DNA of 59,738 bases, from positions 1 to 59,738 of IMG/VR virus record IMGVR_UViG_3300032227_001215; one strand, 5' to 3'. The position numbers were made by a program, and so were the translations under genes. A model generated the notes under the pieces. That model did not search any database and was not told where the DNA came from. It saw only the letters and a program-made list of their open reading frames with translations. The DNA is from a virus. Taxonomy: Duplodnaviria; Caudoviricetes. This document shows positions 20,548 through 53,208 of this stretch, piece after piece (the first letter of the stretch is position 1; the number at the start of each line of letters is the position of its first letter).

Positions 20548-21396
20548 ATGTCAGATTATTACTCAATACTTGGCGTTGATCGTAACGCTGGCCCAGATGA
20601 TATTAAACGAGCATATCGTCGTTTAGCCAGCCAGAACCACCCAGACAAGGGCGGGGATACCCAACGATTCCAAGAAATACAAGCAGCATACGATACGCTC
20701 AGTGATCCAGATAAACGATCACAATACGACAACCCCCAACCACAAGGCATGCCAGGCGGGTTTCATTTCCACTCAGGTGGAGGTATGCCTCCAGGATTTG
20801 AAGATATATTTGCTCATGCGTTTGGCGGTAATAATCCGTTTGGAGACATATTTGGACAGAGACGCCAACAAAGTCCCCGTAATAGAACACTGAACATACA
20901 AACACAGATCTCACTGGAAGAAGCATTCCAAGGTAAAGATCTACTGGCCAATCTCACACTGCCCAGTGGTCGTAATCAAACACTGGAAATTCGCATACCC
21001 GCAGGTATACAGGATGGTACCGCACTGAGATTAAGTGGCATAGGCGATGACAGTTATGCCAATGCACCAAGGGGAGACATACATCTCACAGTGAACGTGT
21101 TAGAACATCCGGTGTTTCAGAGACATGGCGACGATCTTGTTAAAGACATAGATATCGACTGCATAGATGCCATGTTGGGCAAAACAGTAGATGTCGAAAC
21201 TATTGATGGCAGAATCTTGGCAGTCAATATACTACCAGGAACACAACCAGGACAAACCATGGCTGCACAAGGGCATGGCATGCCCAGCATGTCAGATAAT
21301 AGGTTTCGTGGCCGCATGTTGATGACTGTGAATATTCGCATTCCTACCAATATAACAGAATCTCAGCGATCTGTACTGATTCAGGCATTTCGTTAA
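20548..21396 (+). CDS. dnaJ: DnaJ/CbpA-type co-chaperone lacking the zinc finger
   Basis: J-domain DYYSILGV...HPDKGG, G/F-rich linker, C-terminal domain with GDIHL; no CxxCxGxG repeats. Confidence 0.9.
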   Translation: MSDYYSILGVDRNAGPDDIKRAYRRLASQNHPDKGGDTQRFQEIQAAYDTLSDPDKRSQYDNPQPQGMPGGFHFHSGGGMPPGFEDIFAHAFGGNNPFGDIFGQRRQQSPRNRTLNIQTQISLEEAFQGKDLLANLTLPSGRNQTLEIRIPAGIQDGTALRLSGIGDDSYANAPRGDIHLTVNVLEHPVFQRHGDDLVKDIDIDCIDAMLGKTVDVETIDGRILAVNILPGTQPGQTMAAQGHGMPSMSDNRFRGRMLMTVNIRIPTNITESQRSVLIQAFR

Positions 21397-21404
21397 ATAC
21401 CAAT

Positions 21405-21902
21405 ATGAAGATATTGACCTACCCTAATGATTCCTTACGAATTGCCTGTCCAGAGTTTGATTTTGATAACCCTGTTATGGATCCAGCAGACTTAGAGCGA
21501 TTACTGGTAGATAACATGCTGGCCGGCAACGGAATAGGGCTTGCGGCCAATCAGATGGGTATATCAACTCGTGTATTTGCCATGGGCCATGTTCGACTGC
21601 CCAAACTGGCTCAGGCATTTTTTAATCCCATAGTCGTAGCCAATACAGAGGACTTAGTCGAATTAGAGGAAGGTTGCTTGAGTTTTCCTAGTATATATGT
21701 TAAAATTAAACGTCCACGCAAGATTCGCGTTAGATGGCAGGATCGAACAGGAGCATGGCAAGAAGGTGAATTTGAAGACTATCAAAGTAGGTGTTTTTTA
21801 CATGAACTAGACCATTTAGAAGGTATTGTATTCCAGGACAGAGTTAGCACTCTTAAATGGGCATTAGCAGTTAAAAAAACACAAAAAAGGAAATACAAAT
21901 AA
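21405..21902 (+). CDS. def: Peptide deformylase
   Basis: GIGLAANQMG, EGCLS and HELDHLEG motifs. Confidence 0.95.
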   Translation: MKILTYPNDSLRIACPEFDFDNPVMDPADLERLLVDNMLAGNGIGLAANQMGISTRVFAMGHVRLPKLAQAFFNPIVVANTEDLVELEEGCLSFPSIYVKIKRPRKIRVRWQDRTGAWQEGEFEDYQSRCFLHELDHLEGIVFQDRVSTLKWALAVKKTQKRKYK

Positions 21903-21903
21903 T

Positions 21904-24177
21904 ATGTTGGAACCAAATAAAGATTTAGAGAGCATTTTTGAAAATGCTATTAAAATAGCCAGTGTGTACGAGCACGAATATATCACACTGGAACATTTTC
22001 TGTATAGTATGGTTAATAATGACTCATTTGCCGAAATATTAACAGCATTCGGAGCAGATGTTGATATTCTTAAAAGCGATCTAGACAAATATATCAAGGA
22101 TAATCTACAGGAAATTATAAATCCCGATGCAGAAAAACCTAAAAAGACCAATGGTGTAGATCGCATGTTGAATCGTGCTTTTACACAGGTATTGTTCAGT
22201 GGTCGACAAATTATTGAACCGGTTGACTGTTTTCTCAGCATGTTCTCTGAAAAAAAGAGTCATGCTAATTTTTTCATTAGAAAAGCCAATATTGACAAAG
22301 ATAAATTTGTTAACTTTGTAAAGAAAGAATTAGTAAGAGAGGACGAGGAAGCCACTGCCATTGATGCTAAAACAGCACAACTAGAACGTATGATTGTACA
22401 ATTTTGTACCAATCTCACTGCCAAAGCCAAAGCCAAGAAGATTGATCCAGTAATCGGGCGGGACAAAGAAATTGAAGAAATTGAACTGGTACTGGCTCGT
22501 CGTACCAAAGCCAATGCCATACTGATTGGTGACCCAGGTGTGGGTAAAACTGCCATTGCAGAAGGATTAGCCCGTAAAATTATCGAAGGCTCAGTTCCTA
22601 AGTTTATTCAAGAACATAGTGTGTATAGCTTAGATATCAGTGCAATGTTAGCAGGTAGCAAATATCGTGGCGATTTTGAAGAACGTCTCAAGACCGTAAT
22701 TGGCGCTATCGAAAAGAAAGGCAAGTGTATCCTATTCATCGACGAAGCACATATGATGAATGGCGCTGGTGCTTCCAATGGATCCAGCAACGACATGGCC
22801 AATATGCTGAAATCAGCATTGGGAAAAGGCACTATTAAGGTCATTGCCTCCACAACCTGGGAAGAATATCGAAAACATTTTGAAAAAGATCGCGCTCTTA
22901 TGCGTCGTTTCCAACGTGTTGTTATCGATGAACCCGATGAAGATACTGCTATTAAGATTGTCAAAGGCGTTAAAAAATACTACGAAAAACATCATAAGGT
23001 TAAAATCACCAACCAGGCTGTGATCGACAGTGTCAAATACAGCATTAAATACATGACCGATAAGAAATTGCCGGACAAGGCTATCGATCTTATTGACTGT
23101 GCCTGTGCTAGATTCAAAGTTCGTGATCAGGAGAATGGCATTGTTGATCACGAAGAAATTGTATTTGAAGTAGCTAAAATCTCCAATCTCAGCTTTGACC
23201 AAATCAATAACAAAGAAAATGTCAATATTCAGGCTCTGGAAAAGAACATGAAGGCCAAAGTGTACGGACAGGAAAAAGCCATCGACAGTCTATTAGACAA
23301 GGTGTTTATTGCTCAAGCCGGACTAAAAAGCCTTAACAAGCCAGTGGGTAGCTTCTTGTTTGTAGGGCCAACCGGTGTAGGCAAAACTGAGGCAGCTAAA
23401 CAACTGGCCGCTAATATGGGTATCAAACTGGTACGGTTTGATATGAGCGAGTTTCAGGAAAAACACAGTGTGGCCAAGTTTATCGGCAGTCCTCCGGGAT
23501 ATATCGGGTTCGAAGAAAATGCCGGACAGCTAATTACCAGTCTACAGGAAACTCCTAACTGTGTGTTGTTGTTAGATGAAGTTGAAAAAGCACACCCGGA
23601 TGTCCTAACTATCCTGTTGCAAATCATGGACAATGGATTTATTACCGGTAGTAATGGCAAAAAGGGAGATGCTCGTAGTGCTATCATTATCATGACCAGC
23701 AACTTAGGTGCTGCTGATGCTGAAAAGAATGGTGTAGGATTTGGTAGTTTAGAACGAGATGGCGATCCTAAAGATGCTGTTAATAAATTCTTTGCTCCAG
23801 AATTCCGCAATCGTCTCGACGGTGTGATTCGCTTTGGTAAACTGGATAGAAGCACCATGTCTAAGATTGTTAAGAAGTTTATTGACGATCTCAATAGCCT
23901 GATCAAGGACAAGAATATTCATGTCAAGCCAACTGCTATAGCACTGGGATATCTAGTCGATCGAGGATTTGATAGCAAAATGGGCGCTAGACCCTTGCAG
24001 CGTGTCATTGACGAACAGATTAAGAAACCGCTGAGCCGTGAAATTCTGTTTGGTAAACTAACCAACGGTGGGATTGTAGAGATCAGTGTAATTGATAATC
24101 AACTCAAACTCAATATTGTAGACGTACTGCCTGTTGGCAAGATTAAAAATGACACCGAAGAAACTGAAGACCAATAA
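21904..24177 (+). CDS. clpA: ATP-dependent Clp protease ATPase subunit ClpA
   Basis: Clp N-domain, two AAA modules (GDPGVGKT, GPTGVGKT), KYRGDFEER, no M-domain, VGF ClpP-docking loop, GARPL. Confidence 0.92.
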   Translation: MLEPNKDLESIFENAIKIASVYEHEYITLEHFLYSMVNNDSFAEILTAFGADVDILKSDLDKYIKDNLQEIINPDAEKPKKTNGVDRMLNRAFTQVLFSGRQIIEPVDCFLSMFSEKKSHANFFIRKANIDKDKFVNFVKKELVREDEEATAIDAKTAQLERMIVQFCTNLTAKAKAKKIDPVIGRDKEIEEIELVLARRTKANAILIGDPGVGKTAIAEGLARKIIEGSVPKFIQEHSVYSLDISAMLAGSKYRGDFEERLKTVIGAIEKKGKCILFIDEAHMMNGAGASNGSSNDMANMLKSALGKGTIKVIASTTWEEYRKHFEKDRALMRRFQRVVIDEPDEDTAIKIVKGVKKYYEKHHKVKITNQAVIDSVKYSIKYMTDKKLPDKAIDLIDCACARFKVRDQENGIVDHEEIVFEVAKISNLSFDQINNKENVNIQALEKNMKAKVYGQEKAIDSLLDKVFIAQAGLKSLNKPVGSFLFVGPTGVGKTEAAKQLAANMGIKLVRFDMSEFQEKHSVAKFIGSPPGYIGFEENAGQLITSLQETPNCVLLLDEVEKAHPDVLTILLQIMDNGFITGSNGKKGDARSAIIIMTSNLGAADAEKNGVGFGSLERDGDPKDAVNKFFAPEFRNRLDGVIRFGKLDRSTMSKIVKKFIDDLNSLIKDKNIHVKPTAIALGYLVDRGFDSKMGARPLQRVIDEQIKKPLSREILFGKLTNGGIVEISVIDNQLKLNIVDVLPVGKIKNDTEETEDQ

Positions 24178-25283: not shown

Positions 25284-25703
25284 ATGCGTGTTGCTGATCT
25301 TTTTGATGGACTGGATTTTGTCGAAGAAACCATCCAAGAAGGTGATGTTTTTGAACTAGAACTTGGCGATTTTGTTCTAGAAACCACCGTAATTGGTATG
25401 AAAAGCGACGGTCCTATCTTAGCCATAGACGAGACTGCTATAGCATATATCCCATTAGAAGAAGCCAAATACCATGGAAGAACTGTGCCGTTAGGTAAAC
25501 CCATGGCAGGAGATGTGAAAAAAAGCAAGGTCTATGTAAAAGACCCTGTTACCGGCAATGTTAAAAAGGTCAACTTTGGTGATAAAAAACTCAGTATTAA
25601 AAAGCACCTGCCTGGACATCGTAAGAGTTTTAGAGCACGTCATCATTGTGAAAATCCTGGACCTAGAACCAAGGCTCGGTTCTGGTCATGTAAGGCGTGG
25701 TGA
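25284..25703 (+). CDS. Hypothetical protein with acidic N-half and basic C-terminal KKVNFGD...SFRARHHC...FWSCKAW module
   Basis: AGGAG RBS, ATAAATA at 25256, MRVADLF N-terminus. Confidence 0.8.
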   Translation: MRVADLFDGLDFVEETIQEGDVFELELGDFVLETTVIGMKSDGPILAIDETAIAYIPLEEAKYHGRTVPLGKPMAGDVKKSKVYVKDPVTGNVKKVNFGDKKLSIKKHLPGHRKSFRARHHCENPGPRTKARFWSCKAW

Positions 25704-25708
25704 TAAAA

Positions 25709-26335
25709 ATGAAATACATAATTTATAAAATCACTAATAATGTTAATGGACGGTACTACATAGGAAGACACCGTACAAAAAATATAAATGACACATATAT
25801 GGGAAGCGGCAAGGCTATTTCTAATGCCATTAAGAAATACGGTGTTGAGAACTTTACTAAAGAAATAATAGCGGAATCATGGGATGAAACCAATCTTTGG
25901 GAATTAGAAAAACTAATTGTAAATGATGAGATAGTTAATGATCCAAAATCTTATAATATGAGTTATGGTGGCAAGCACTATCTGCACGGATTAAAAACAT
26001 ACAACAAAAAAGCCTTTATTGAACATCAAAAAACAGCCGGATTAAAAGGCGGACCGGCTTGCTATAGTAAAAAAACTGATACAGAGAAACTCGAATGGCA
26101 CAAAAAAGGATACGAAGCCGGAAAAGATAAACATTACATTAGAAATTCTAGATGTGTATATGAATTAACTACAAATAGTAAAGAGACATTTATACTTAAC
26201 GGTGTAGAATTTAGGAAGATGTGCCGAGAAAAAGGGTGGAACCATTCTACCTTATTATGGCCAAAAAGTTTTGGACGACCGATTAAAAGAGGACCCCTTA
26301 CTGGGTTTCAGGTCAATAAAATCTCGCAGGAATAA
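25709..26335 (+). mobile_element. Free-standing GIY-YIG homing endonuclease gene (Seg-like)
   Basis: YIIYKITNNVNGRYYIGRH, YMGSG, AIKKYG, ENF, YNM motifs. Confidence 0.88.
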
Positions 26336-26340
26336 CCTAT

Positions 26341-29300
26341 ATGTTTTTAACTGAATTTTTTGGCAAGAGCCTAGATATTAAATCTTCCAGTGATCAAGAC
26401 CACAACGATCAAGAAATAGCCAATGAACTGTTTCAATACATACTAGACCACGATAGACTACATAAAGAATATTTTCATCCACTGGCAAAGAAAATAAGTC
26501 GCCAACAACAAAATAAAAAAGAAAATAAGAGTCAACTAGTTAAAGAATTCATGCCCATGGTGGAAAAGGGCTGTAAAGAATTCTATCATAAGAACAAAAT
26601 GTCCGGTAAGTTGGGCAAAGTATTTCCGCTGGATATGCGTGAAGAACTATGTGATCGATTGTATGATCACTATTGCGACGATATCAAACGCGACAAATAC
26701 AAATTAATGGAAGGTGGTAATCTATCATTAGATAATCCCGACGATCCTACTAAACCACATCAGGCCGACGAAATCAATCTCAAGGTCCATAATCGTAGTT
26801 TTATGGTAGGATTGCTTAATAAAATGCTACATGATATCAGTGCGGTGTTTCAGGCCAAATATAAAAAGCCATTATGGTCTGCCAACTTGCTACAAAGTCG
26901 TGAATTCTTAAGTGGTAGTAGCCTACATTTTTTTAATACCAACGGTGTTAGTGACGAGGAGTTTGCCAAACACAAACCCAAAGTAGGCGATATTGATACA
27001 CAGGTCGATGAAAAATTAGAACCCGAAGTAGAAGAATTCCTAACTGCCATGACTGGCAAACAGATTGGCGACACTAAACTTCTTGGATTTAGCCGAGGCA
27101 CTTCTCAATTCAATGCTTTATTTCAGTTCCAAGATCCTCCTATGAAAATACAGGTAGATTTTGAATTTGGCGGGTATGGGGAAGAAACTGGCACACCAGA
27201 CGATTGGTTTAAATTCAGCCACAGTAGCGATTGGAATGATATTACTGCTGGTATTAAAGGTGTGTTTCACAAATATCTCTATAGAGCATTGGCATCCGGA
27301 GGCAGTGCTCAACAGGCCTATGTGGCCAAATTACAAGGCAGGGGCAAGGCTAGAGGCGTAGTAATCAATCCCGAACCCGCCGAAGTCAATATGTTATCAT
27401 TTGCCGTGGCCAGCAAGCAAGGTGGCGGTATGAGCAGAAAACATGTGCCTTATACTGATCCCGAAACTGGCGAAAGCAGTCGCAATGGCCTTCCTATTGT
27501 GATCGAAGTTGATCCTAAAGATAGAACCTATATTCAAAATCTCAGCGAACAATTTGAAATGATCTTTGGTCGCAAACCCCAAGGCAATGACAGCCAACTA
27601 CAACAGAGTTTTATAGGCACATTGGACCTAATCAACAAATATATAAAACCCGATCGTAAGCCCAGGATTGTTCAAGATTTCCTGGATATTTGTTTTGAAA
27701 TTGGCGGTCAAATGATCACCAAAGATGATCCTGTAAGAGATGCTCAAACTAAATTTGCGGCTATCGATGTTATGTTGGAAAAATTGGGCATGGGCAATAT
27801 GAGAGAGCAGGCCGTAGCACAAGCCAAAGCCTATGAAGATGATTATCACGAATTAGAAGCATTTAAGGTAGCAAACCCTGGCGAAAAACAACCTAGAGCT
27901 GCAATGAAAAAAGCCAAGGCAGCACAAGGGTTAGCAGAAGCAGACAAAAATAAACCTCAACCAGCAGTAAAGGCACAACTACGCAAAGGCATGCCGCATC
28001 TACGTGATCTAAAACCAGCAGACTTTTTAGACTTAGTCGACGAACTACAGGACTCGGGTGGCAGATTTGTTTTACAGAATATTCCACTAAATGTTAAAAT
28101 TGACGGATTTGGTGGTCGTTTTGGTAAGGATGCCCAAGGCAAACCTTTTATGGGCACCAGCCGTACTGAACCCAAATACAAAGCAGGATTCCTTGATTAC
28201 CACAAACAAAAAGGCACCACCGATCCCGAAGTGCTAGGTCGTGCTGCTAACTTTGACAAGTTGTTCAACGAAATGATGACTGCTGTTAAAATGGTGGACA
28301 GTGCATTAGGACCAGATTTCCTAGTGGATAGACAGGTCACTTGCGAAGTGCTGTTTCTACCATTTGCCACCAAGACCGAATCAGGTGGTTTAAAGTTTGT
28401 AGGTATTGAATATGATCAGATCCCACAAGGTGTTGATCTAGTATTGGTGCCATTTCGAATTGTAGAAGGTGGTAGTGGAGAAGAAATAGCCGACGGTGAT
28501 GCTGCTGTTCAACAGATAGCGGAACTGGGCCAAAGCGACAATGTCATGTTTATGAGCAACAGACTGGTTCAAAAACAAGGGCTGGATGTTACTGAAATCG
28601 TTAATGTGCTAGACAATATCGACGAACTTAAATCTATTGTAAGCGGTACAGCAGGACGGCGTGACCGAGCCAGTACAGATCTACGCCGACAGATTGAAGA
28701 AAAATTAAAGCCAGTTCAGATTGCATTAGAGCGAGCTATCGACGAAGATCCTAACATTGTAGGAAAAGATAAATTGGGATCCGAATACGAAGGCATTGTT
28801 ATCAATAGTCGCTTAGGTCCGATCAAGGTCACCAGTCAGAGACAGAAAGATCTTATCACTGCTAAAAATACTGCCAAGGCCAACGCCCGTATCGATCGTG
28901 GTAGAGAGAATGCCAATAAAACCGCAGTGGTTGCTATTGGAAGTTTTATAGGTCATCGTGGCCACCAAGAACTATGGAACTACACCGTTGACAAAGCCAA
29001 ACAACTACATGGAGATCCTTATCTATTCATTGGCAATGCGGAAGGCAAAGATGATCCTATTCCACCATCAGTTAAGGTGGAAACATGGCATCAGCTATAT
29101 CCCCAGTATGCCAACAATATCAGTACTGTGACGCAACAAGGCGGATCACTAATACAAAAGATTAAACACGAGCTAATCAATCCTCTACCTGGCAAGCCGC
29201 CACGCTATGACAATGTTGTTATTATGGTCGGAGAGGATCGCGGCAATCTCAGCATGCCACAGGCATTGATGAAGGCTGTTAATAAGTTTCCGGGCTATGA

Positions 29301-30078
29301 GCATGTTAAGGTCAGTTTAGAAGTTACACCCCGTGGTACAGGTGTTAGTGGCACAATGCTACGCAACAGTTTAAAAAATGACTCTCCCGAAGATGCACTG
29401 GCAGTATGGTCCGATGCGTTTGATGTCAATCGACTTGGTGTAGATTGGATTGAACACCTAATGGATATAACCCGCAAAGGCATGGGTATTGTTGCTAAAG
29501 TAGCAGCACCCGAAAAAACAACAGAACCGGTAGCAGAAAGAATCCTATCAGCACTGACCAATCATAAAAAATCAGTGGTAGAGGATGAAGAACATCAGCT
29601 GCGCCAGCGTTTGATACGAGCCATTGCTCGTGCTACAGGATATGGAGTAGCCGAACTAAACTTACTCAGCACCGCCGAACTTCGAGATCTAGTCAAAGAA
29701 AAATCTCATCATAAACATCAGGATACAGAAGAATCCTATTGGGGAGGTCCTAGTCCGGCACAAAAGCGTTTTAATCGTGCGTTAGAAAAAGAGCGTAAAA
29801 AGAGCGAGCCCGATAGAGAACGGTTTCAGAAAGAACTAGATCGTATCATGCCGCCGCCAAAAAAGGATACCGAGCCTAAAGAAAAAGATGTAGGGGAAGG
29901 ACTTCGTGATCCCGAAGATAATCCATGTTGGAAGGGCTATAAGCCTGTTGGGACCAAAAAGAAAGGTGGTCGCACTGTACCCAACTGTGTACCAGTCAGT
30001 GAGTCAGTTGAAAACATCATGGCCGCACTGATAGATAGGATCATAGTAAATGAAGCAATACAAAATAGACAGCAGTAA
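26341..30078 (+). CDS. 1245-aa multidomain protein: pol-beta-like nucleotidyltransferase, ATP-dependent ligase-like domain and HxGH (cytidylyltransferase-like) domain
   Basis: LSGSS...GDIDTQVD; NVKIDG...EGIVI...IKV; GHRGH...MVGEDR...SGTMLR; C-terminal CWKGY...PNCVP module. Confidence 0.65.
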   Translation: MFLTEFFGKSLDIKSSSDQDHNDQEIANELFQYILDHDRLHKEYFHPLAKKISRQQQNKKENKSQLVKEFMPMVEKGCKEFYHKNKMSGKLGKVFPLDMREELCDRLYDHYCDDIKRDKYKLMEGGNLSLDNPDDPTKPHQADEINLKVHNRSFMVGLLNKMLHDISAVFQAKYKKPLWSANLLQSREFLSGSSLHFFNTNGVSDEEFAKHKPKVGDIDTQVDEKLEPEVEEFLTAMTGKQIGDTKLLGFSRGTSQFNALFQFQDPPMKIQVDFEFGGYGEETGTPDDWFKFSHSSDWNDITAGIKGVFHKYLYRALASGGSAQQAYVAKLQGRGKARGVVINPEPAEVNMLSFAVASKQGGGMSRKHVPYTDPETGESSRNGLPIVIEVDPKDRTYIQNLSEQFEMIFGRKPQGNDSQLQQSFIGTLDLINKYIKPDRKPRIVQDFLDICFEIGGQMITKDDPVRDAQTKFAAIDVMLEKLGMGNMREQAVAQAKAYEDDYHELEAFKVANPGEKQPRAAMKKAKAAQGLAEADKNKPQPAVKAQLRKGMPHLRDLKPADFLDLVDELQDSGGRFVLQNIPLNVKIDGFGGRFGKDAQGKPFMGTSRTEPKYKAGFLDYHKQKGTTDPEVLGRAANFDKLFNEMMTAVKMVDSALGPDFLVDRQVTCEVLFLPFATKTESGGLKFVGIEYDQIPQGVDLVLVPFRIVEGGSGEEIADGDAAVQQIAELGQSDNVMFMSNRLVQKQGLDVTEIVNVLDNIDELKSIVSGTAGRRDRASTDLRRQIEEKLKPVQIALERAIDEDPNIVGKDKLGSEYEGIVINSRLGPIKVTSQRQKDLITAKNTAKANARIDRGRENANKTAVVAIGSFIGHRGHQELWNYTVDKAKQLHGDPYLFIGNAEGKDDPIPPSVKVETWHQLYPQYANNISTVTQQGGSLIQKIKHELINPLPGKPPRYDNVVIMVGEDRGNLSMPQALMKAVNKFPGYEHVKVSLEVTPRGTGVSGTMLRNSLKNDSPEDALAVWSDAFDVNRLGVDWIEHLMDITRKGMGIVAKVAAPEKTTEPVAERILSALTNHKKSVVEDEEHQLRQRLIRAIARATGYGVAELNLLSTAELRDLVKEKSHHKHQDTEESYWGGPSPAQKRFNRALEKERKKSEPDRERFQKELDRIMPPPKKDTEPKEKDVGEGLRDPEDNPCWKGYKPVGTKKKGGRTVPNCVPVSESVENIMAALIDRIIVNEAIQNRQQ

Positions 30079-30358: not shown

Positions 30359-30799
30359 ATGGATAAATTGATACAACTTACACGAATAGCATTCAGTACT
30401 ACCTTTAGTTTTTATATAAAGGTGCATAGTTTCCATTGGAATGTCGAAGGACCAGACTTCTACGAATATCACAAATTGTTTGAAGAAATCTACGAAGAAG
30501 TATACGGTGCCGTAGATCCATTTGCCGAAAATGTTCGCAAACTAGGTGGATATATGCCTGCCAGTTATCACACACTCAATATGCTGACCAAGATCGAAGA
30601 CGAAAATCAAGTGCCTAATCTACAACAAATGATTCAGGAGTTACTATTAGACAGTGAAAAAATTCAAATTGTGCTAAAGAAAAATTATGATCTTGCCGAA
30701 GCAGCGGGAGAGCACGGACTTAGCAACTTCTTGGCAGAGCGCATGGATGCTCATAGAAAGCATGCCTGGTTTTTGCGTTCTAGTATCAAGGGAGCATAA
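30359..30799 (+). CDS. dps: Dps / ferritin-like protein
   Basis: HSFHWNVEGPDFYEYHKLFEE, DPFAENVRKLG, HRKHAWFL. Confidence 0.9.
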   Translation: MDKLIQLTRIAFSTTFSFYIKVHSFHWNVEGPDFYEYHKLFEEIYEEVYGAVDPFAENVRKLGGYMPASYHTLNMLTKIEDENQVPNLQQMIQELLLDSEKIQIVLKKNYDLAEAAGEHGLSNFLAERMDAHRKHAWFLRSSIKGA

Positions 30800-31665
30800 T
30801 GCGTATAAGAGAACTTTTTGAAAATGAAGCTGGCGCTGCCGGACCGCTGTCTGTCCCTCCTGGTAACAAGGGAGTAGAAGTAGCCGATGTTCAAAAAGCG
30901 TTACTAGCATTAGGGGCAGCTACATCACAGGATCTTGGAAATCTCGGTCCAAAGAAGGATGGTGTAGATGGAATCATTGGCCCACTAACAGCTGGTGCAT
31001 TACGAAAATTCCAATCAGCTAGTAAATTACCCGCCAGCGGTCGTGCCGATGATGCTACCGTAGCTGCATTAAATTCTGCACTAACAGCAGGTAATATTAC
31101 CATAGTTAAATCTACCCCAGCAGATGTTGCTAGAAATGCCATGAGAGGTAAAGGACCAAGTGCCGAAGATCTTGCTGCTATACAAAGTCCTGAGTTTAAT
31201 GACAAATTAAATAAAATAGGTCAGAAACTAGGTGTAGATCCCAAAGAACTATTGAGAATTATGAAATTCGAAACCGGCGGTAGTATGAGTCCGAGCCAAA
31301 AATCTGGAACCAGTAGCGCAGTTGGACTAATTCAATTTATGCCCGATACAGCACGAGATTTGGGCACTACCACACAAGCACTGGCACAAATGTCTGCTGT
31401 AGAACAATTAGATTATGTGTATAAGTATTATAAGATGAATGGCGTTCAACCCGGCATGGGAGTAGGTGATCTTTACATGCTGACCTTTATGCCTGCTGCT
31501 ATAGATAAACCTGATGACTTTGTTCTTGGCGATGCCAACGGGGGAAAGATATTTGGCCTAAACAAAGCTAAAGTATGGCAACAAAATCCAGGATTTGGAA
31601 AAAGCCATGGTAAGAGTTATTTTACCGTAGGCGATGTTAAAAGCACTATAGAAAGGCGGGCATAA
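30799..31665 (+). CDS. Peptidoglycan-binding domain plus SLT-like lytic transglycosylase
   Basis: VQKALLALG...DGIIGPLTAGALRKFQ; catalytic IMKFETGG and AVGLIQFMPDTA. Confidence 0.85.
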   Translation: MRIRELFENEAGAAGPLSVPPGNKGVEVADVQKALLALGAATSQDLGNLGPKKDGVDGIIGPLTAGALRKFQSASKLPASGRADDATVAALNSALTAGNITIVKSTPADVARNAMRGKGPSAEDLAAIQSPEFNDKLNKIGQKLGVDPKELLRIMKFETGGSMSPSQKSGTSSAVGLIQFMPDTARDLGTTTQALAQMSAVEQLDYVYKYYKMNGVQPGMGVGDLYMLTFMPAAIDKPDDFVLGDANGGKIFGLNKAKVWQQNPGFGKSHGKSYFTVGDVKSTIERRA

Positions 31666-32030
31666 TGAGAGCCAGTGAATTTATTACAGAAAGTGGTGTC
31701 CATCAGATAAATTCGGTTCACAAAAGTGCGTTGAAAAATGCCACTACTTTCCCTGACCAGAATATGTACAATGGCAACGGCGGTAGTTATTTAAATTATC
31801 GAATGGGTATTGCACTTGCCGGTGCTCCGGAGTATCCTACCAAGGCTACCAGTTATATTGCTGGAGATCCGCTACTAGCACCCTACACAGAAGCAGAAAT
31901 GGAAATGATCAAGTATGCTGCAGGCCAAATCGGCGACAACAGCAGAAAAACTCACTCTAGTAAACGCAGTGAAGAAATGTCCGATGTTTATAAAGTGAGC
32001 CCTATATCACAGTGGAATAAAAAATCATGA
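31665..32030 (+). CDS. Hypothetical protein, probable internal head protein
   Basis: N-terminus MRASEFITE resembles the T4 capsid-targeting sequence. Confidence 0.75.
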   Translation: MRASEFITESGVHQINSVHKSALKNATTFPDQNMYNGNGGSYLNYRMGIALAGAPEYPTKATSYIAGDPLLAPYTEAEMEMIKYAAGQIGDNSRKTHSSKRSEEMSDVYKVSPISQWNKKS

Positions 32031-33784
32031 ACAACGAATTTAAAAAAATTGATCAAGGTGACGTAACCAGATATGTTTTGGAAAGTGCCAGTGGTGGTGG
32101 AACCAGTGCAGGAAATGTTGCATCTGTATCCAAGGCAATGGGCGGAGTTCAACGCAGAAGTAATCTACTAGTTCAGGATGTTAGCCCTAAACTTACTCCT
32201 CGTAGCCCCGTTGCTCATGCTGCACAAAAAGTAGCCAAGGGCAGTGGCAAACATACTGATCGCAAACAACAAAGCAAACAAGTTCGCGGTGAGAAACACA
32301 AGACCAAGGATTTTGCCGAAAATCAGGATCATGAGATCAGCATGGCCGGCAGTGAACTACACAGTATCTTCCAAAATGCCAAACAACTACACACCATGAT
32401 CAAGACCAAGAGCGAAGAGGAAGGGTTAGATGCTTGGCAACAAAGCAAGATTACCAAAGCAGCAGATTATCTCAACAGTGTGCTACAAAGCCTACAACAT
32501 GAGATCATGGGCGAAGGCGATCGCACAATGAGTCGTGCTGCCAAGGGCAACGAAAAGTATGGCAAGGATGGAATGCGGGCATTGGCCAAGGCCGGTCGTG
32601 ACGGTGCTAGTGAAAAACAGTTAGATGCTATTCGCGATAAACACGATCACTATAACGAAGAGTGGAGTCAAAAATACAAGAATTCAATCAACTGTTCGCA
32701 TCCAAAAGGATTTAGCCAAAAGGCTCATTGTGCAGGTAAACGCAAGCACAACGAAAGCATTGCTATGGAAATGACATGCCCAGATTGTGGTATGTGCAAG
32801 ACACACGGCAATAACATGATGGAAGTCAAGCAACGGTTAGATGCCAAGTGTTGGAAAGGCAAGCATAAAGAAGGTACAAAAATCAAAGGTGGCGTTAGAG
32901 TAAACAACTGTGTGCCAAATGAGGGGGTGTCAGAATCACACCTGGACGAACTAGATCGCCCAAGTGGTAAGTTATTCATTATTGTCAAAGCAGATAATGC
33001 CGGTGCTACTCATGTGTTTGGTGACTTCGGTTCGGTCCCGAGAGACGTTGTATCCAAGATCAGTAAGCGTGGAACTAGAGACAAGGCCGGAGTTAAAACC
33101 AAACTGAAAATTGATTTCTTGTTTGATGACTTTAGATCTGCTATCCAGCAATTGAGGACCATATTTAGAGATGTGGATTTTGTGGGAGCCGAGGCAGCAG
33201 AATTTATTATTCACAGTTCCGCACTACGCAGCGATCAAGGTGAAGATGTTAAGCAATTGAGAGACTATATCGAAGCCGGTGATGATCGTCGTATGACTAT
33301 GTATCAAAAGCCCGAAGAGAATGATGATGAAGAAGGTGAATTGACTGGTGGTAATTTACCACGTGCTAAAAAACCACAAACACAGATGGGTGGTAAATCT
33401 GTCGAACAACCAGGCATGACCACTTATCGTTTTAAAGATGCCAGAATCGCTCAACAACTACGTAGTATGAATTTGGGATTCAATATCAAAGGCGATAGTA
33501 TTACTGTAGATCAAAAACAAAAAGCAAAACTAATCAGCATGTTAGGCGATCGGTTTAGTGACGTGTTTACTAATAAAGAACAATTCAAAGAACAAGATAT
33601 CTATATGGAATCATTATCCACTGCTCTAGAACAAAAACTCAGTGTAAATGATACTCCCGAAGTATGGCGTGATGATTTTGAACATGCGGATCCTGTCAAA
33701 TATAAACAGTTTAGAAACAAGACTGTTGAGAAAAAACATCGCATGGCCGATGTGGCTCGCTACAGACAGATTCAGAAAAAATGA
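32027..33784 (+). CDS. Modular hypothetical protein made of short basic/Cys-containing cassettes
   Basis: 585-aa ORF with WQQSKITKAADY, WSQKYKNSINC...AHC, CPDCGMC and CWKG...NCVP modules. Confidence 0.8.
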   Translation: MNNEFKKIDQGDVTRYVLESASGGGTSAGNVASVSKAMGGVQRRSNLLVQDVSPKLTPRSPVAHAAQKVAKGSGKHTDRKQQSKQVRGEKHKTKDFAENQDHEISMAGSELHSIFQNAKQLHTMIKTKSEEEGLDAWQQSKITKAADYLNSVLQSLQHEIMGEGDRTMSRAAKGNEKYGKDGMRALAKAGRDGASEKQLDAIRDKHDHYNEEWSQKYKNSINCSHPKGFSQKAHCAGKRKHNESIAMEMTCPDCGMCKTHGNNMMEVKQRLDAKCWKGKHKEGTKIKGGVRVNNCVPNEGVSESHLDELDRPSGKLFIIVKADNAGATHVFGDFGSVPRDVVSKISKRGTRDKAGVKTKLKIDFLFDDFRSAIQQLRTIFRDVDFVGAEAAEFIIHSSALRSDQGEDVKQLRDYIEAGDDRRMTMYQKPEENDDEEGELTGGNLPRAKKPQTQMGGKSVEQPGMTTYRFKDARIAQQLRSMNLGFNIKGDSITVDQKQKAKLISMLGDRFSDVFTNKEQFKEQDIYMESLSTALEQKLSVNDTPEVWRDDFEHADPVKYKQFRNKTVEKKHRMADVARYRQIQKK

Positions 33785-34302
33785 GAATGAACGAAGTCTA
33801 TGATCCAGATAGATATGAAATACATAATCTAAAAAAACTGGATCATATCATAGTTGAACTGTGCGAAATGATTGTTCGCGGCCAGCAAAAAGAATCCAAA
33901 CACTACGGTATGGTTGCTGCCTGTGTGCTGGACCCGGACAATCGTCCTGTGTTTGGAATAAATCAACCTGCCGATGATGGAACACGAGTTCATGCCGAAC
34001 GTGTGGCCATAGATAAGTATAACAGAGAATATGGTGAAATACCCGAAGGCAGTATCATCATCACCACACTAAGTCCGTGCGACGAATTACACGATGCGAC
34101 AGCAGATGACCGATATGGAGAGAGCTGCACCGATTTAGTCAATCGTAGCCCAGTCCGTAAAGTCTACTGTGGCTATATGGATCCTAGCCAAGGCGACGAT
34201 CAACACGACGATCGTGAATTTACCCTGCTGGAAACAGCCAATCCTGATATACGCAGACTCTGCGAAAAGTTTGCTGCAACATTCTTGACAACAACATCTT
34301 AA
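33781..34302 (+). CDS. Zn-dependent deaminase (cytidine/RibD-like fold)
   Basis: VAACVL, HAE and TTLSPC-x15-C motifs. Confidence 0.8.
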   Translation: MRMNEVYDPDRYEIHNLKKLDHIIVELCEMIVRGQQKESKHYGMVAACVLDPDNRPVFGINQPADDGTRVHAERVAIDKYNREYGEIPEGSIIITTLSPCDELHDATADDRYGESCTDLVNRSPVRKVYCGYMDPSQGDDQHDDREFTLLETANPDIRRLCEKFAATFLTTTS

Positions 34303-43396: not shown

Positions 43397-45418
43397 ATGA
43401 AACTCAAAAAACTTGCCGCCAGTATTGCTTTTCTAATTTCAACCGGAGCCGTGGCACAAACTGCGGTTTGGGAAACCAGCGAATATTACAAAAGCCGAAC
43501 ATTAGATAGTGTTAAAGCCAGTTCTGCTTGGAGCCGCGGATATACCGGGAAAGGTAGTGTAATTGCTATACTTGATTCCGGCATTGATACCAAGAATACC
43601 GAATTTGCCAATCGTATTAAACTGATCCAAGATTTTAGTAATAGCGGCAGCATTATTGATAGACTCGGACATGGAACCCATGTAGCAGGGATTGCCGGTG
43701 CGGCCTTTAATGGTGTTGGAGTTGCAGGTGTAGCATTTGATTCTACTCTGCTTATTGGCAAAGTTACCAACAACGGCATGGCCACCACAACCACACTCGG
43801 TAATGGTATCCAGTGGGCCAATAACAACAATGCCGATGTTGCCAATTTGAGTTTCAGTAACACATTGTCTGCAACTGCAATTGGAGCAAAACTTATTGCA
43901 CCCGGTGTTTACTCCACCGTCCATACCAATACCGGGAACTTGCCGGGCATGTCAAACCCCCAACAATGGGCAGACGCCATGAAAGGCAATATGGTGCTGG
44001 TCCTGGCTGCAGGCAATGATGGCACACCATGGTCAGGAGGATTGTCCCAAATTGCTACCGCTACAGATAAAAATGGCAACCTGTTGCTTGGCGGTCGAGT
44101 AATCATTGCCGGTAACTGGAACGAGCAAAGCAATGCAGGATTAGGAACCGGTAGTAATGCTGCTGCTACTCTTTGCCAGGCTGTGGTTGCCAATGTGTGC
44201 CAAGACAAATATAAAATGAGCCAATTTTATTTGCTGGCCCCAGGCGTCGGCATTAGCTCAACCGTTCCAACTAGTCTAAATAGAACTGGGTTGAGTAACA
44301 TGTCCGGAACATCCATGGCTGCTCCGGCTATCAGTGGTGGTGTAGCCATTATCCGCCAAATGTGGCCGCAGATGACCGGTGCTAACATTGCTCAGTTACT
44401 ATTTGTTACAGCCAACAAAAATCTTCCAGGGTACAAACCAGAATTGTACGGTCAAGGACTAATGGATCTTGATAAGGCCACTCGCCCAGTTGGATCATTA
44501 GGCATTCCTACTACAGGAAGGTTAAGCGGGCCGACAACCACTGCTATTCAGCCTGTGTTGGTCACTGGCGGAAGTGCCGGAACCGGCAAAATTAGTGGTG
44601 TTATGGTGGTAGATAGTTTCCAACGTGACTTTTACCTTCCGGGTAAAACACTAACTGCCTACAATAATCAAAGTTATTTTAATGTAGCACAGACGTCAAT
44701 GCCATACGAAACTCGTAATAATTATAGCCAGTTTAACAATTACACTGATTATGTTCATAACGAAACTGGCGATTTTGAAGTTAAACTGTATCGTAACAAC
44801 ACGTTCAACATGGTCGGAAATAATCCAGGCATGATCGAAATGGGGTATCAGTTGCGCAATGACTATGCCAATATTAAATTCACTTCAGGAATGTTTGTAG
44901 AAAACAACACTTGGCTTGGCAATGCTCTAAACAGTTTCGGCGGTGGGGGCAATAATAAAATGAGCTCCACATACTTTACAGGTGTAGGCGTTGATCGCGA
45001 TGTTGGTAAGAACAATTTCTACGCCAATGTTACACACGGGGTTACACTGGCATCCAGCACCAGCGATAATATCAGCAACTTAGGTTCCGTGATGAGCTAT
45101 ACCTGGACACTGGGTGCTGAGCACAAATTGGATACCAAGAACGCCCTGGGCTTAATGGTATATCAACCTGTGTCGGTATATCGTGCTATGGCAGATGTTA
45201 CCGCCCCGGTGGGATTAGACAGCAACTTCAATGTGATTCAGAATAGCCGTCAAAACCTTGCTGCCACAGTTCATGAAACACGAGTAGGACTTTACTACAA
45301 GTTCAAAGATGAAGATCGTTCAAATGTCCTGGCTTTTGTAGAAAATCGTCAAAACTATCGTGGACAGACAGGTGTTAGTGATAATGTTGCCGGGATTTCC
45401 TTTAATCAACGGTTCTAA
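43397..45418 (+). CDS. Secreted S8 subtilase with a C-terminal beta-barrel-like (autotransporter-like) domain
   Basis: Signal peptide MKLKKLAASIAFLISTGAVA; ILDSG, GHGTHVAG, AAGN, GTSMAAP, YGQGLMD; amphipathic beta C-terminus ending ISFNQRF. Confidence 0.85.
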   Translation: MKLKKLAASIAFLISTGAVAQTAVWETSEYYKSRTLDSVKASSAWSRGYTGKGSVIAILDSGIDTKNTEFANRIKLIQDFSNSGSIIDRLGHGTHVAGIAGAAFNGVGVAGVAFDSTLLIGKVTNNGMATTTTLGNGIQWANNNNADVANLSFSNTLSATAIGAKLIAPGVYSTVHTNTGNLPGMSNPQQWADAMKGNMVLVLAAGNDGTPWSGGLSQIATATDKNGNLLLGGRVIIAGNWNEQSNAGLGTGSNAAATLCQAVVANVCQDKYKMSQFYLLAPGVGISSTVPTSLNRTGLSNMSGTSMAAPAISGGVAIIRQMWPQMTGANIAQLLFVTANKNLPGYKPELYGQGLMDLDKATRPVGSLGIPTTGRLSGPTTTAIQPVLVTGGSAGTGKISGVMVVDSFQRDFYLPGKTLTAYNNQSYFNVAQTSMPYETRNNYSQFNNYTDYVHNETGDFEVKLYRNNTFNMVGNNPGMIEMGYQLRNDYANIKFTSGMFVENNTWLGNALNSFGGGGNNKMSSTYFTGVGVDRDVGKNNFYANVTHGVTLASSTSDNISNLGSVMSYTWTLGAEHKLDTKNALGLMVYQPVSVYRAMADVTAPVGLDSNFNVIQNSRQNLAATVHETRVGLYYKFKDEDRSNVLAFVENRQNYRGQTGVSDNVAGISFNQRF

Positions 45419-51951: not shown

Positions 51952-53208
51952 ATGTCATCAGTAATGAAATCCGAGAAGACCAAGAAAATTGTTCCTAAGA
52001 ACTTTACTCAGGCAGAAAAGAATAAGATTGTAGAAAAATTGGTAACCGCTCGTATTGGGCTGTTGCTTCGGCATCCATTCTTTGGCAATCTTGCTACTCG
52101 TATGCAACTTATTGATGCCACCGACTGGTGTTCTACACTGGCCACAGATGGTCGTCGCTTTTATTACAATAACGACTTTGTCAACAAACTGACCCCAAAA
52201 CAGGCCGAGTTTGGCTTTGCACACGAAGTGCTACACAATGTGTTTGATCACATGGGGCGACGTGATAAGCGGCATCCTGTATTAAGCAACATTGCTGCTG
52301 ACTATGCTGCCAATCAAATCCTCAAAGATGAGCGCATTGGTGAAGTGCCGGATTGGATCAAAATCTACCAAGATAACAAATACCGTGGTAAGTCCTACGA
52401 GGAGATCTACGACGATCTTTACGAAAAGGCCGAAAAGATCAACGTAGAAGATCTTGGCGAACTATTGGACGAGCACCTTGACGGAGATGAAGACGGTGAC
52501 AGTGAAGACGGCGATAAGGAAGGCAAGAGCAAGCGTCCTAAACTCAGTGCCGAAGAACGCAAGAAAATTCGCGATGAGATTAAAGAAGCAGTGGTAGCTG
52601 CCGCACAGGCTGCAGGCGCAGGTAAAGTGCCGGCAGGTATTGCACGTATGATCAAAGACTTTACCGAGCCTAAAATGAATTGGAAGCAGATGTTGCGTAT
52701 GAATATCCAAAGTATTCTCAAAAGCAACTTCAGCTTCAACCGTCCTAATCGTAAGAGTCAGCATTGCGGTGCTGTATTACCCGGAATGATGAACGAAGAA
52801 ACCATTGATGTAGCCTGCGGTATTGATATGAGTGGTAGTATTACCAATGTAATGGGCAAAGACATGATCAGTGAAATCAAAGGTATCATGGAAGAATACA
52901 AAGATTTCAAACTGAAACTTTGGTGCTTTGATACCGATGTTTATAACTATGCAGAATTTACCGGCGATAATGCCGACGATATCAACGAGTATGAATGCAA
53001 GGGCGGCGGCGGGACTGACTTTGAAGCCAACTGGACGTTTATGAAAGAACACGGTATTGAGCCAAAGAAGTTTATTATGTTCACGGATGGATTGCCTTGT
53101 GGCGGGTGGGGTGACGAACACTATTGTGATACATTGTTTATTATTCATGGCAATAATACCATTGTTTCACCGTTTGGTCAATACGCCTACTACGACGATG
53201 TAAAATAA
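51952..53208 (+). CDS. Metallopeptidase-like (HExxH) plus VWA domain protein (DUF2201-type), MoxR partner
   Basis: ATDG, AHEVLH; MIDAS motifs IDMSGS, GGGGTDF, MFTDG. Confidence 0.85.
   Translation: MSSVMKSEKTKKIVPKNFTQAEKNKIVEKLVTARIGLLLRHPFFGNLATRMQLIDATDWCSTLATDGRRFYYNNDFVNKLTPKQAEFGFAHEVLHNVFDHMGRRDKRHPVLSNIAADYAANQILKDERIGEVPDWIKIYQDNKYRGKSYEEIYDDLYEKAEKINVEDLGELLDEHLDGDEDGDSEDGDKEGKSKRPKLSAEERKKIRDEIKEAVVAAAQAAGAGKVPAGIARMIKDFTEPKMNWKQMLRMNIQSILKSNFSFNRPNRKSQHCGAVLPGMMNEETIDVACGIDMSGSITNVMGKDMISEIKGIMEEYKDFKLKLWCFDTDVYNYAEFTGDNADDINEYECKGGGGTDFEANWTFMKEHGIEPKKFIMFTDGLPCGGWGDEHYCDTLFIIHGNNTIVSPFGQYAYYDDVK

Follow-up and report, generated by a model that had tools for sequence, protein, structure and literature searches.

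Several proteins of phage T4 (IPI, IPII, IPIII, and Alt) are packaged into the head, processed by the prohead protease gp21, and injected into the host. The T4 capsid-targeting sequence is given as MKTYQEFIAE in PMC8442874, and according to PMC9026906, gp21 cuts after L/I-x-E, a 10-amino-acid propeptide (the first 10 residues of IPIII) suffices for packaging, and this leader may be a general loading route for proteins in T4-like phages. The polyvalent proteins of phages and conjugative elements, as described by Iyer et al. 2017 (PMC5512222), carry several enzymatic domains; they are predicted to be packaged and to enter the cell with the DNA at the very start of infection. Pol-beta-type transferases are described as partners of RNA ligases, with RlaP (PF10127) extending the 3' ends of damaged RNA by one or two nucleotides ahead of ligation (PMC12776372, PMC7824862). 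Here, we analyzed a 59,738-nucleotide (nt) stretch of DNA, hereafter the window, of a virus of the Duplodnaviria (Caudoviricetes; IMG/VR record IMGVR_UViG_3300032227_001215), in which one open reading frame (ORF; 26341..30078, + strand) encodes a protein of 1245 amino acids (aa) that, according to structure models, joins three different nucleotidyl-transfer folds with conserved active-site motifs in one polypeptide. The protein represents a well-conserved, uncharacterised phage system, and none of the closest described concepts has this trio or its mode of assembly.

The ORF starts with ATG, is free of internal stop codons, and consists of an N module, modules A, B, and C, and a tail. At E ≤ 1e-3, we retrieved 655 homologs among the candidates scored from phage metagenomes and 920 matching representatives of 50%-identity clusters, none of which carried an informative name. 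In a BLAST comparison with the first 120 relatives, the conserved core spanned aa 122–1050 and the sequence beyond aa 1050 was variable, and each part of the ORF was also found as a stand-alone protein in the search of cluster representatives. Pfam returned only sub-threshold matches for the whole protein (FAD_syn, E 0.022, aa 857–889; DUF6987, E 0.072), and neither NCBIfam nor a sequence search of the PDB returned any match. PHROGs assigned an unnamed family to aa 123–483 and 'cytidyltransferase' to aa 853–1013, while the ESM Atlas yielded only unnamed virus clusters, including one with NTP_transf_2 in 33% and DNA_pol_B_palm in 17%, as well as DUF6267. Modules A and B, which are without a Pfam or NCBIfam model and have hundreds of homologs, thus appear from these searches to form large phage-only enzyme families.

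Stand-alone and fused relatives were aligned together, and two AlphaFold2 models (aa 122–500 and aa 535–1060) were built from the alignments and compared with known structures using VIA-align (48,161 chains for module A) alongside Foldseek. The original prediction for this ORF had read three nucleotidyl-transfer folds from its motifs, and this was borne out by the motifs, by models with a predicted local distance difference test score (pLDDT) of about 94, and by the fold searches: structure prediction and Foldseek per domain recovered the three named fold classes, all named motifs were located where they had been placed, and the catalytic residues were invariant or nearly so in homologs (48 sequences in the module A alignment). 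It had also known of no characterised protein with this architecture, in agreement with our searches of Pfam, NCBIfam, the PDB, and the literature, which found none. Literature queries on the DUF names, or on a capsid targeting sequence together with a nucleotidyltransferase and an RNA ligase, returned nothing relevant (supplementary architecture tables of PMC5512222 and PMC7824862 excluded). The specific functions it named remain predictions, and as an overall interpretation it is partly supported. Our preferred reading, to which we assign a probability of roughly 0.45, is that the ORF encodes a capsid-targeted, protease-cut polyprotein that would deliver an end-extending and end-sealing kit together with an NMNAT-like enzyme.

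Module A (aa 125–500; 26713..27840, + strand) is modelled as a transferase of the Pol-beta superfamily whose palm and thumb resemble those of Pol X enzymes (family X) and are followed by a C-terminal helical domain. The model of aa 122–500 had a pLDDT of 94.7 and a predicted template modelling score (pTM) of 0.91. The h-G-[GS], D-x-D, and third-acidic-residue features of the superfamily were all present, as G192-S193 (nt 26914), D217/D219 (nt 26989–26997), and the acidic pair D273/E275, and these six residues as well as K306, K311, D467, and K471 were invariant in 48 diverse homologs. The G-G-N at the predicted mature N-terminus was likewise invariant. The module matched phrog_19290 (E 1.5e-23), whereas a profile search of the PDB found nothing and Pfam found no informative family in the 48 proteins, apart from one weak match to DUF4901. 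The Pfam family-X models gave no match at E ≤ 1 (whole protein) or E ≤ 0.01 (48 module A proteins).

At the structural level, the top Foldseek matches of module A were Pol beta and Pol lambda (E 3.5e-4; TM-score about 0.23–0.30). In the VIA-align search, the module matched TUT7 (Z 7.8, 104 residues aligned), TdT (7.6, 177), Pol beta (7.4, 174), and Pol X of African swine fever virus (ASFV; 7.1, 164 of 176 residues aligned), and none of the chains reached a Z of 8; when VIA-align was applied to the chains listed by Foldseek, Pol mu reached Z 8.3 with a root-mean-square deviation (rmsd) of 3.7 and 177 residues aligned over palm and thumb. The alignments to the family-X enzymes (Pol mu, TdT, Pol beta, and Pol lambda) covered about 172–190 residues with Z values of 7.3–8.3, and all of the top PDB matches belonged to the Pol-beta superfamily (Pol beta, mu, lambda, TdT, TUT7, Trf4, GLD-2, and OAS2; Z 7.0–8.3). 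In the BFVD viral library, unnamed phage proteins came first, followed by giant-virus family-X polymerases.

These matches bear on an alternative that we consider distinctly unlikely, in which the protein is packaged in the virion as a kit to repair the DNA of the phage itself, with module A as a minimal family-X gap-filler or end-extender and module B sealing nicks in the incoming DNA. In ASFV, a minimal Pol X is paired with a ligase and both are packaged, and such a kit for phage DNA would fit the alignment of module A with four family-X enzymes over palm and thumb, the near-complete alignment of ASFV Pol X, the giant-virus polymerases as the first viral matches beyond the homologs, and the fact that head-internal proteins travel with the DNA. 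The resemblance to the ASFV pair lies in a palm-and-thumb-only core coupled to an ATP-type ligase; the present pair differs in its about 8–13% identity, its lack of a Pfam match, a ligase without an oligonucleotide-binding (OB) domain, its phage setting, and its fusion to an NMNAT-like enzyme. Module A, however, leaves no room for the 8-kDa/deoxyribose-phosphate-lyase and helix-hairpin-helix region, which was not found ahead of its palm (the alignments start at the palm, at residues 275–494 of Pol mu and 141–335 of Pol beta), and neither a family-X nor a DNA-ligase model of Pfam matches the protein.

Module B (aa 534–850; 27940..28890, + strand) is, judging from its model, fold matches, and conservation, an ATP-type ligase domain (ligase-type adenylyltransferase) without an OB domain. 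In the model of aa 535–1060, which spans modules B and C (pLDDT 94.4, pTM 0.79), no OB domain follows module B; a helix leads directly to the Rossmann-type module C. Motifs I, III, IIIa, IV, and V of covalent nucleotidyltransferases occur in this order, with residues assigned to motif numbers by pattern rather than by residue-level superposition. They include K586-I-D-G (nt 28096), E817-G818 (nt 28789), and I828-K829 (nt 28822–28827). Conservation was complete at K586 (46/46), D588 and G589 (both 47/47), E669 (52/52), and E817, G818, and K829 (all 55/55), F686/Y691 were conserved in 100% of the sequences aligned there, and R548 and H553 were invariant upstream of motif I. The closest structures in VIA-align were the RNA ligases NgrRnl (Z 10.5, 187 residues aligned) and TbREL1 (10.0, 204), followed by T4 Rnl2 (8.7–8.8), Rnl3 (8.7), DNA ligases (8.3–8.9), and Trl1 (8.3), with a spread of no more than about 2 Z units among the RNA ligase families; Foldseek listed the ligase domain of Trl1 (Trl1-LIG; 8.6e-6), Rnl3 (1.5e-4), and T4 Rnl1 (1.6e-4). 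No DNA-ligase or RNA-ligase model of Pfam matched module B, Pfam found no informative family in 16 module B/C proteins, and a PDB profile search with the module B alignment returned only RibF, a match that belongs to module C.

The DNA ligases at Z 8.3–8.9 speak for the DNA repair kit, but the module lacks the OB domain that DNA ligases have, and RNA ligases head its list of matches. Since its best fold matches are RNA ligases and an OB domain is missing, we regard RNA as somewhat more likely than DNA to be the substrate of modules A and B. A canonical DNA ligase (PF01068) was encoded separately in four of the five large relatives, so that module B is an extra rather than the replicative ligase; Rnl2-type ligases were found in two of the five and an NAD-dependent ligase in none. 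The unit resembles the systems of RlaP and Rnl-type ligases, as described in the sources cited above, in the genetic coupling of a Pol-beta-fold transferase to an ATP-type ligase. Unlike RlaP, module A has a family-X-like palm and thumb and no match to PF10127 (0 of 48 module A proteins at E ≤ 0.01), and unlike in those systems, the ligase is without a Pfam ligase match, a third enzyme with an HxGH motif belongs to the unit, and a search of five records revealed no kinase-phosphatase partner.

Module C (aa 858–1050; 28912..29490, + strand) is modelled as an HxGH (HIGH-superfamily) adenylyltransferase that is closest to nicotinamide mononucleotide (NMN) and NaMN adenylyltransferases, PPAT, and FAD synthetase. 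Its motif residues are G871-H872-R-G-H875 (nt 28951), D905-P906, K912, V963-G964-E-D966-R, and T1005 followed by R1008. H872, H875, and R1008 were each conserved in 54 of 54 homologs, and D905-P906, G964/D966, and T1005 were invariant or nearly so. VIA-align ranked NadM NMNAT first (Z 12.3 and 12.2), followed by NaMNAT (12.0), the NMNAT of M. jannaschii (11.9), and PPAT (11.8), while Foldseek listed PPAT (2.7e-5) and FAD synthetase (3.6e-5), so that NMNAT, PPAT, and FAD synthetase are tied. Profile comparison of the HxGH region with the PDB gave RibF FAD synthetase (E 1.2e-4), PHROGs gave phrog_3041, 'cytidyltransferase' (E 5.6e-8), and Pfam gave nothing above cut-off (FAD_syn, E 0.022). The enzyme probably adenylylates a small phosphate-bearing molecule, with NMN as the most likely substrate. 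A complex prediction for the separately encoded modules B and C of one locus (L005) scored 0.01 and is uninformative either way.

A reading centred on module C, in which the protein would counter Thoeris, CBASS, or NADase systems by restoring NAD+ or by making or mimicking nucleotide signals, with module A as the signal synthase, is in our estimate very unlikely. The affinity of module C to NMN/NaMN adenylyltransferases agrees with it, as does the G-R-x-Q-P-x-H-x-G-H form of the motif carried by split-gene versions, which we take to be typical of archaeal or NadM-type NMNAT. NAD+ synthesis genes are also described in jumbo phages (PMC7824862). The tie between NMNAT, PPAT, and FAD synthetase in Z, however, leaves the substrate undefined, Nampt was absent from four of five records, and the ligase module would be left without a role. 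The original prediction had also entertained NAD+ restoration, which the missing Nampt disfavors, and cGAS-like synthesis of cyclic nucleotides, which received no support, as cGAS-like receptors matched module A weakly and superposed poorly (Z 6.1–6.5, rmsd 8.5–9.3). Module C shares the HIGH-superfamily fold with known phage NAD+ synthesis enzymes (NMNAT fused to Nudix or a kinase, with Nampt), and its best structural matches are NadM/NMNAT; it differs from them in that no Nudix or kinase is fused to it, Nampt is mostly absent, no Pfam cut-off is reached, and it is always coupled to the ligase module.

Modules A, B, and C constitute a conserved unit, either fused or as neighbouring genes. A search of viral contigs with the module A alignment yielded 80 viral loci, in which modules were called by three hidden Markov models (HMMs). 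All three modules were fused in one ORF in 35 loci and encoded by three adjacent genes in 12, and module A was followed by a fused BC gene in 4; the remaining loci carried separate A and B genes (19), a fused AB gene (4), or module A alone (6). The modules invariably followed the order A, B, C on a single strand. Of the loci lacking module C or B, seven break off no more than 800 nt after the last match. In 12 others, all among the 29 loci that gave no match to the module C HMM, the ORF after module B contained a G-R-x-x-P-x-H-x-G-H motif. Two such ORFs passed the Pfam CTP_transf_like cut-off of 21 bits (28.7 in phage BUDD and 30.9 in locus L017) and a third fell below it. Overall, all three enzyme kinds occurred together in 63 of the 80 loci. 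In Xanthomonas phage BUDD, the row consists of module A, an unrelated 333-aa gene, module B, and an annotated adenylyl/cytidyltransferase; the trio is likewise split in Xanthomonas phage X1. The cultured Vibrio phage Va1 and Campylobacter phage CP220 have a stand-alone module A only, with no B or C nearby.

Two side observations concern these loci. In Va1 (L088), a gene annotated as a multifunctional tRNA nucleotidyltransferase is located 3 kb upstream of the module A gene (734–2080). In two loci, the ORF after module B (11037–11543 in L039 and 5435–5944 in L040) resembles, instead of an HxGH enzyme, a calcineurin-like phosphoesterase, a possible end-healing partner, with a weak match to Metallophos_2 (22 bits, below cut-off).

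The N-termini of the separately encoded proteins point to processing and packaging of the T4 type. The residue before G-G-N was E in 158 and M in 16 of 174 module A proteins, and position -3 was L, I, or V in 157 of the 159 proteins that have one. The module A leaders were mostly 9–18 aa long and started with M-x-L-x-[ED]-[LF]-F or M-K-S-F-K-E-F. Among 24 distinct N-termini of separate B proteins, 19 had [LIVM]-x-E 2–16 aa before the domain and 3 had a variant of it, with leaders such as M-K-S-F-K-E-Y-L-K-E, M-L-S-F-K-K-F-I-A-E, and M-I-I-S-F-K-E-F-I-A-E. The leaders of separate A and B proteins are about 10–18 aa long, are close to the published T4 capsid-targeting sequence, and end with L/I/V-x-E. 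The same leader pattern heads other, unrelated ORFs of the same contigs, whereas a reversed control pattern gave 0 matches. Five ORFs of L005 begin with it: the consecutive ORFs for A, B, and a DUF6321 protein, another located upstream of A, and a 60-aa ORF lying downstream of them. As a side observation, region 2189–9170 of L005, with at least five leader-bearing ORFs including a 266-aa protein of no known family, resembles an internal-protein locus.

In the fused proteins, a comparable site was found at the module junctions. Among 50 representatives, 48 had [LIVM]-x-E 5–16 aa upstream of the module B anchor R-x-G-x-x-H, compared with 15% at random positions drawn from the same proteins, and the residue after this A–B junction site was A in 33 and D in 8. 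The linkers vary in length and sequence except for this h-x-E site, and stand-alone B proteins begin at about its position. After module C, many of the 49 listed representatives carry, by eye and uncounted, P-[VI]-x-E behind a Q/P-rich linker, followed by R-L-F-N-x-L-x-R-P or M-L-P-x-S-x-F-x-G. No such site was seen between modules B and C.

The protein of the window is a four-module fusion plus tail, since its first 121 aa match a separate upstream gene of other loci. The N module (aa 1–124; 26341..26712, + strand) has a leader-like start, M-F-L-T-E-F-F, and its roughly 120 aa end with the site K-L-M-E124 (L122-M-E124) before G125. In 12 loci, separate ORFs with 30–55% identity to it (121–131 aa, with one of 168 aa) immediately precede the ABC gene. 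The N module is found as a fused N-terminal part only in close relatives and is absent from most homologs, and it matches DUF6987 weakly in Pfam (E 0.072). The A–B linker (27841..27939, + strand) ends with L531-A532-E533, and the short linker after module C (29491..29538, + strand) ends with P-V-A-E1066. From the conserved sites, we predict cuts at E124|G125 and E533|A534, and probably at E1066|R1067. Cleavage at glutamate-containing linkers had been proposed before; of the three sites then named, L-M-E|GG and L-A-E|AD coincide with conserved L/I/V-x-E sites, whereas V-V-E|DE (E1081) does not, the conserved site there being P-V-A-E1066|R.

The variable tail (aa 1067–1245; 29539..30075, + strand) contains a basic C-terminal mini-module (Cys-Trp...Asn-Cys-Val, about aa 1190–1225, nt 29908–30015) that was found in many phage proteins; in the BLAST comparison, the recurring stretch covered about aa 1190–1240. 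The same C-W-x-G-Y ... N-C-V mini-module is present in another ORF of the window (32027–33784, + strand; aa about 236–308) and in cyanophage proteins with 43–68% identity, and its position differs among homologs, lying between modules A and B in one of them (P0175). This two-cysteine mini-module may bind DNA or a head component. The tails of homologs hold other domains, namely HD_4, DUF6321, DUF6886, and a partial LysM. Polyvalent proteins, as described in PMC5512222, likewise combine unrelated enzymatic domains in one polypeptide with variable add-ons between orthologs, but they have MuF or portal fusions and zincin-like peptidase domains of their own, whereas the ORF of the window has an apparent T4 leader and would rely on the head protease. 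The A–B–C trio was not seen among the polyvalent-protein descriptions consulted in that paper (supplementary architecture lists excluded).

A regular-expression scan for leaders in the window returned only the ABC ORF itself, and two related leaders were found later by eye: M-R-I-R-E-L-F-E-N-E at the start of a protein with PG_binding_1 and SLT transglycosylase domains (30799–31665, + strand) and M-R-A-S-E-F-I-T-E at the start of a 121-aa ORF (31665–32030, + strand). Relatives of the latter ORF with similar leaders were observed beside the ABC gene in other loci. A Peptidase_S77 of the T4 gp21 type scored above cut-off in all five large relatives. The virion delivery that the original prediction had guessed thus gains support from the leaders, the junction sites, and this protease, and it remains a prediction. 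The likeness to the T4 internal proteins consists of a short leader that several unrelated proteins of one phage have in common, an L/I-x-E site immediately preceding the mature protein, and the presence of gp21-type proteases in related genomes. The differences are that the T4 proteins are small, basic, and cut once, whereas the window protein is a 1245-aa enzyme chain with predicted internal cuts, and that polymerase-, ligase-, and NMNAT-like cargo is not known among T4 head proteins, its packaging here being predicted from sequence.

In the preferred reading, the modular polyprotein belongs to a T4-like jumbo phage, and its N-terminal T4-type leader would direct it into the prohead, where a gp21-type protease would cut after L/I/V-x-E at the junctions and leave B–C as one piece, and the resulting pieces would be injected together with the DNA. 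With less weight, we propose that module A would add nucleotides to a 3'-OH end in the cell, that module B would seal 3'-OH/5'-phosphate breaks, and that module C would make NAD+ or a related adenylylated cofactor. The presumed advantage is that ready-made enzymes would work despite a shut-off of host translation.

Several observations weigh against this reading. Its packaging and cleavage steps are drawn from sequence patterns alone. Leaders are missing from 13 module A proteins, which start directly with M-G-G-N, from 2 of the 24 separate B N-termini, and from most of the separate C proteins, a few of which have one; delivery may accordingly not be universal, or module C may ride along with module B. 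The window, estimated at 17% of its genome, contains neither head genes nor a gp21 homolog, the neighbours of the ORF are chaperone and replication genes and mostly non-structural, and the T4 late-promoter consensus was matched 4 times in the window against 5.6 expected, with no match near the gene. As for the enzymes, the Z values of module A (7–8) are in the middling range of the tool, so that its fold call rests on the motif triad and the consistent hit list. A healing partner of the T4-Pnkp type (PNK3P, PF08645) was found in none of five records, contrary to the tRNA or RNA end repair suggested originally, and Nampt was found in one of five, leaving NAD+ salvage incomplete; both the classical tRNA-repair and the NAD+-salvage readings are thereby weakened. 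The longest alignments of module A are to family-X DNA polymerases, which favors a DNA substrate and keeps the repair of incoming DNA in play.

Some of these points would equally fit the same three enzymes acting as a cytoplasmic multi-enzyme protein that is never packaged, its leader and h-x-E motifs being structural or regulatory elements or sites of other proteases. We consider this unlikely, if a serious alternative. Its neighbours (chaperones, Dps, dCMP deaminase, and DNA polymerase) are not head genes, several homologs are without the leader, the window has no head protease, and two subtilases encoded there could process proteins. Yet the leader seems dispensable for the fold, given that some proteins start at G-G-N, and it is shared with unrelated neighbouring ORFs, including one for a peptidoglycan-cleaving enzyme, and is near the published T4 capsid-targeting sequence. 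The variability of the linkers outside the h-x-E site and the start of stand-alone B proteins at about the junction site also argue against a purely cytoplasmic protein.

The genes of the window indicate a large T4-like myovirus, with a clamp loader, a family-B DNA polymerase, and tail fibres, as well as a baseplate-hub-like PG-binding/SLT protein, a ClpB-like ATPase, and a Dps/ferritin. A GIY-YIG homing-endonuclease gene (25697–26335, + strand; SegE-like, phrog_314, E 1.2e-31) immediately precedes the ORF, and its own upstream neighbour ends within it, with an overlap of 7 nt. Further upstream is a protein-handling run (20548–24177, + strand) of a J-domain-like protein (by eye), a 165-aa ORF, and a ClpB-like double AAA+ ATPase, and ClpB-like and J-like genes were near the ABC gene in about 26–30 of the 80 loci. 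A Dps/ferritin-like gene lies downstream (30359–30799, + strand), as it does near the ABC gene in 16 loci, and a dCMP/cytidine deaminase gene follows at 33781–34302 (+ strand). The window also encodes a DUF2201 metallopeptidase plus a VWA-like protein (51952–53208, + strand) and two subtilisin-family (Peptidase_S8) proteins (250–1902 and 43397–45418, + strand).

In a wider and more doubtful reading, which we hold to be a genuine but lesser possibility, T4-like jumbo phages of uncultured hosts would carry in their heads a protease-matured polyprotein made up of a minimal Pol X-like end-extender, a ligase of a new OB-less family, and an NMNAT-like enzyme; once injected, these enzymes would mend broken tRNA or the phage's own DNA and supply an adenylylated cofactor before or without new protein synthesis, evading defences that stop translation, and the T4 leader would be a portable label, used beyond the T-even phages, for the fusion and fission of cargo. 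If the preferred reading is true, polynucleotide repair enzymes together with a cofactor-synthesis enzyme would constitute a new class of injected cargo, and head-protease sites would let phages fuse and split such cargo freely. It would also establish modules A and B as two large enzyme families found only in phages, with clear catalytic predictions; the small OB-less ligase module and the minimal Pol X-like module may appeal to enzymologists as tools. Finally, the leader together with L/I/V-x-E would provide a sequence rule to predict head-internal proteins in uncultured T4-like phages.

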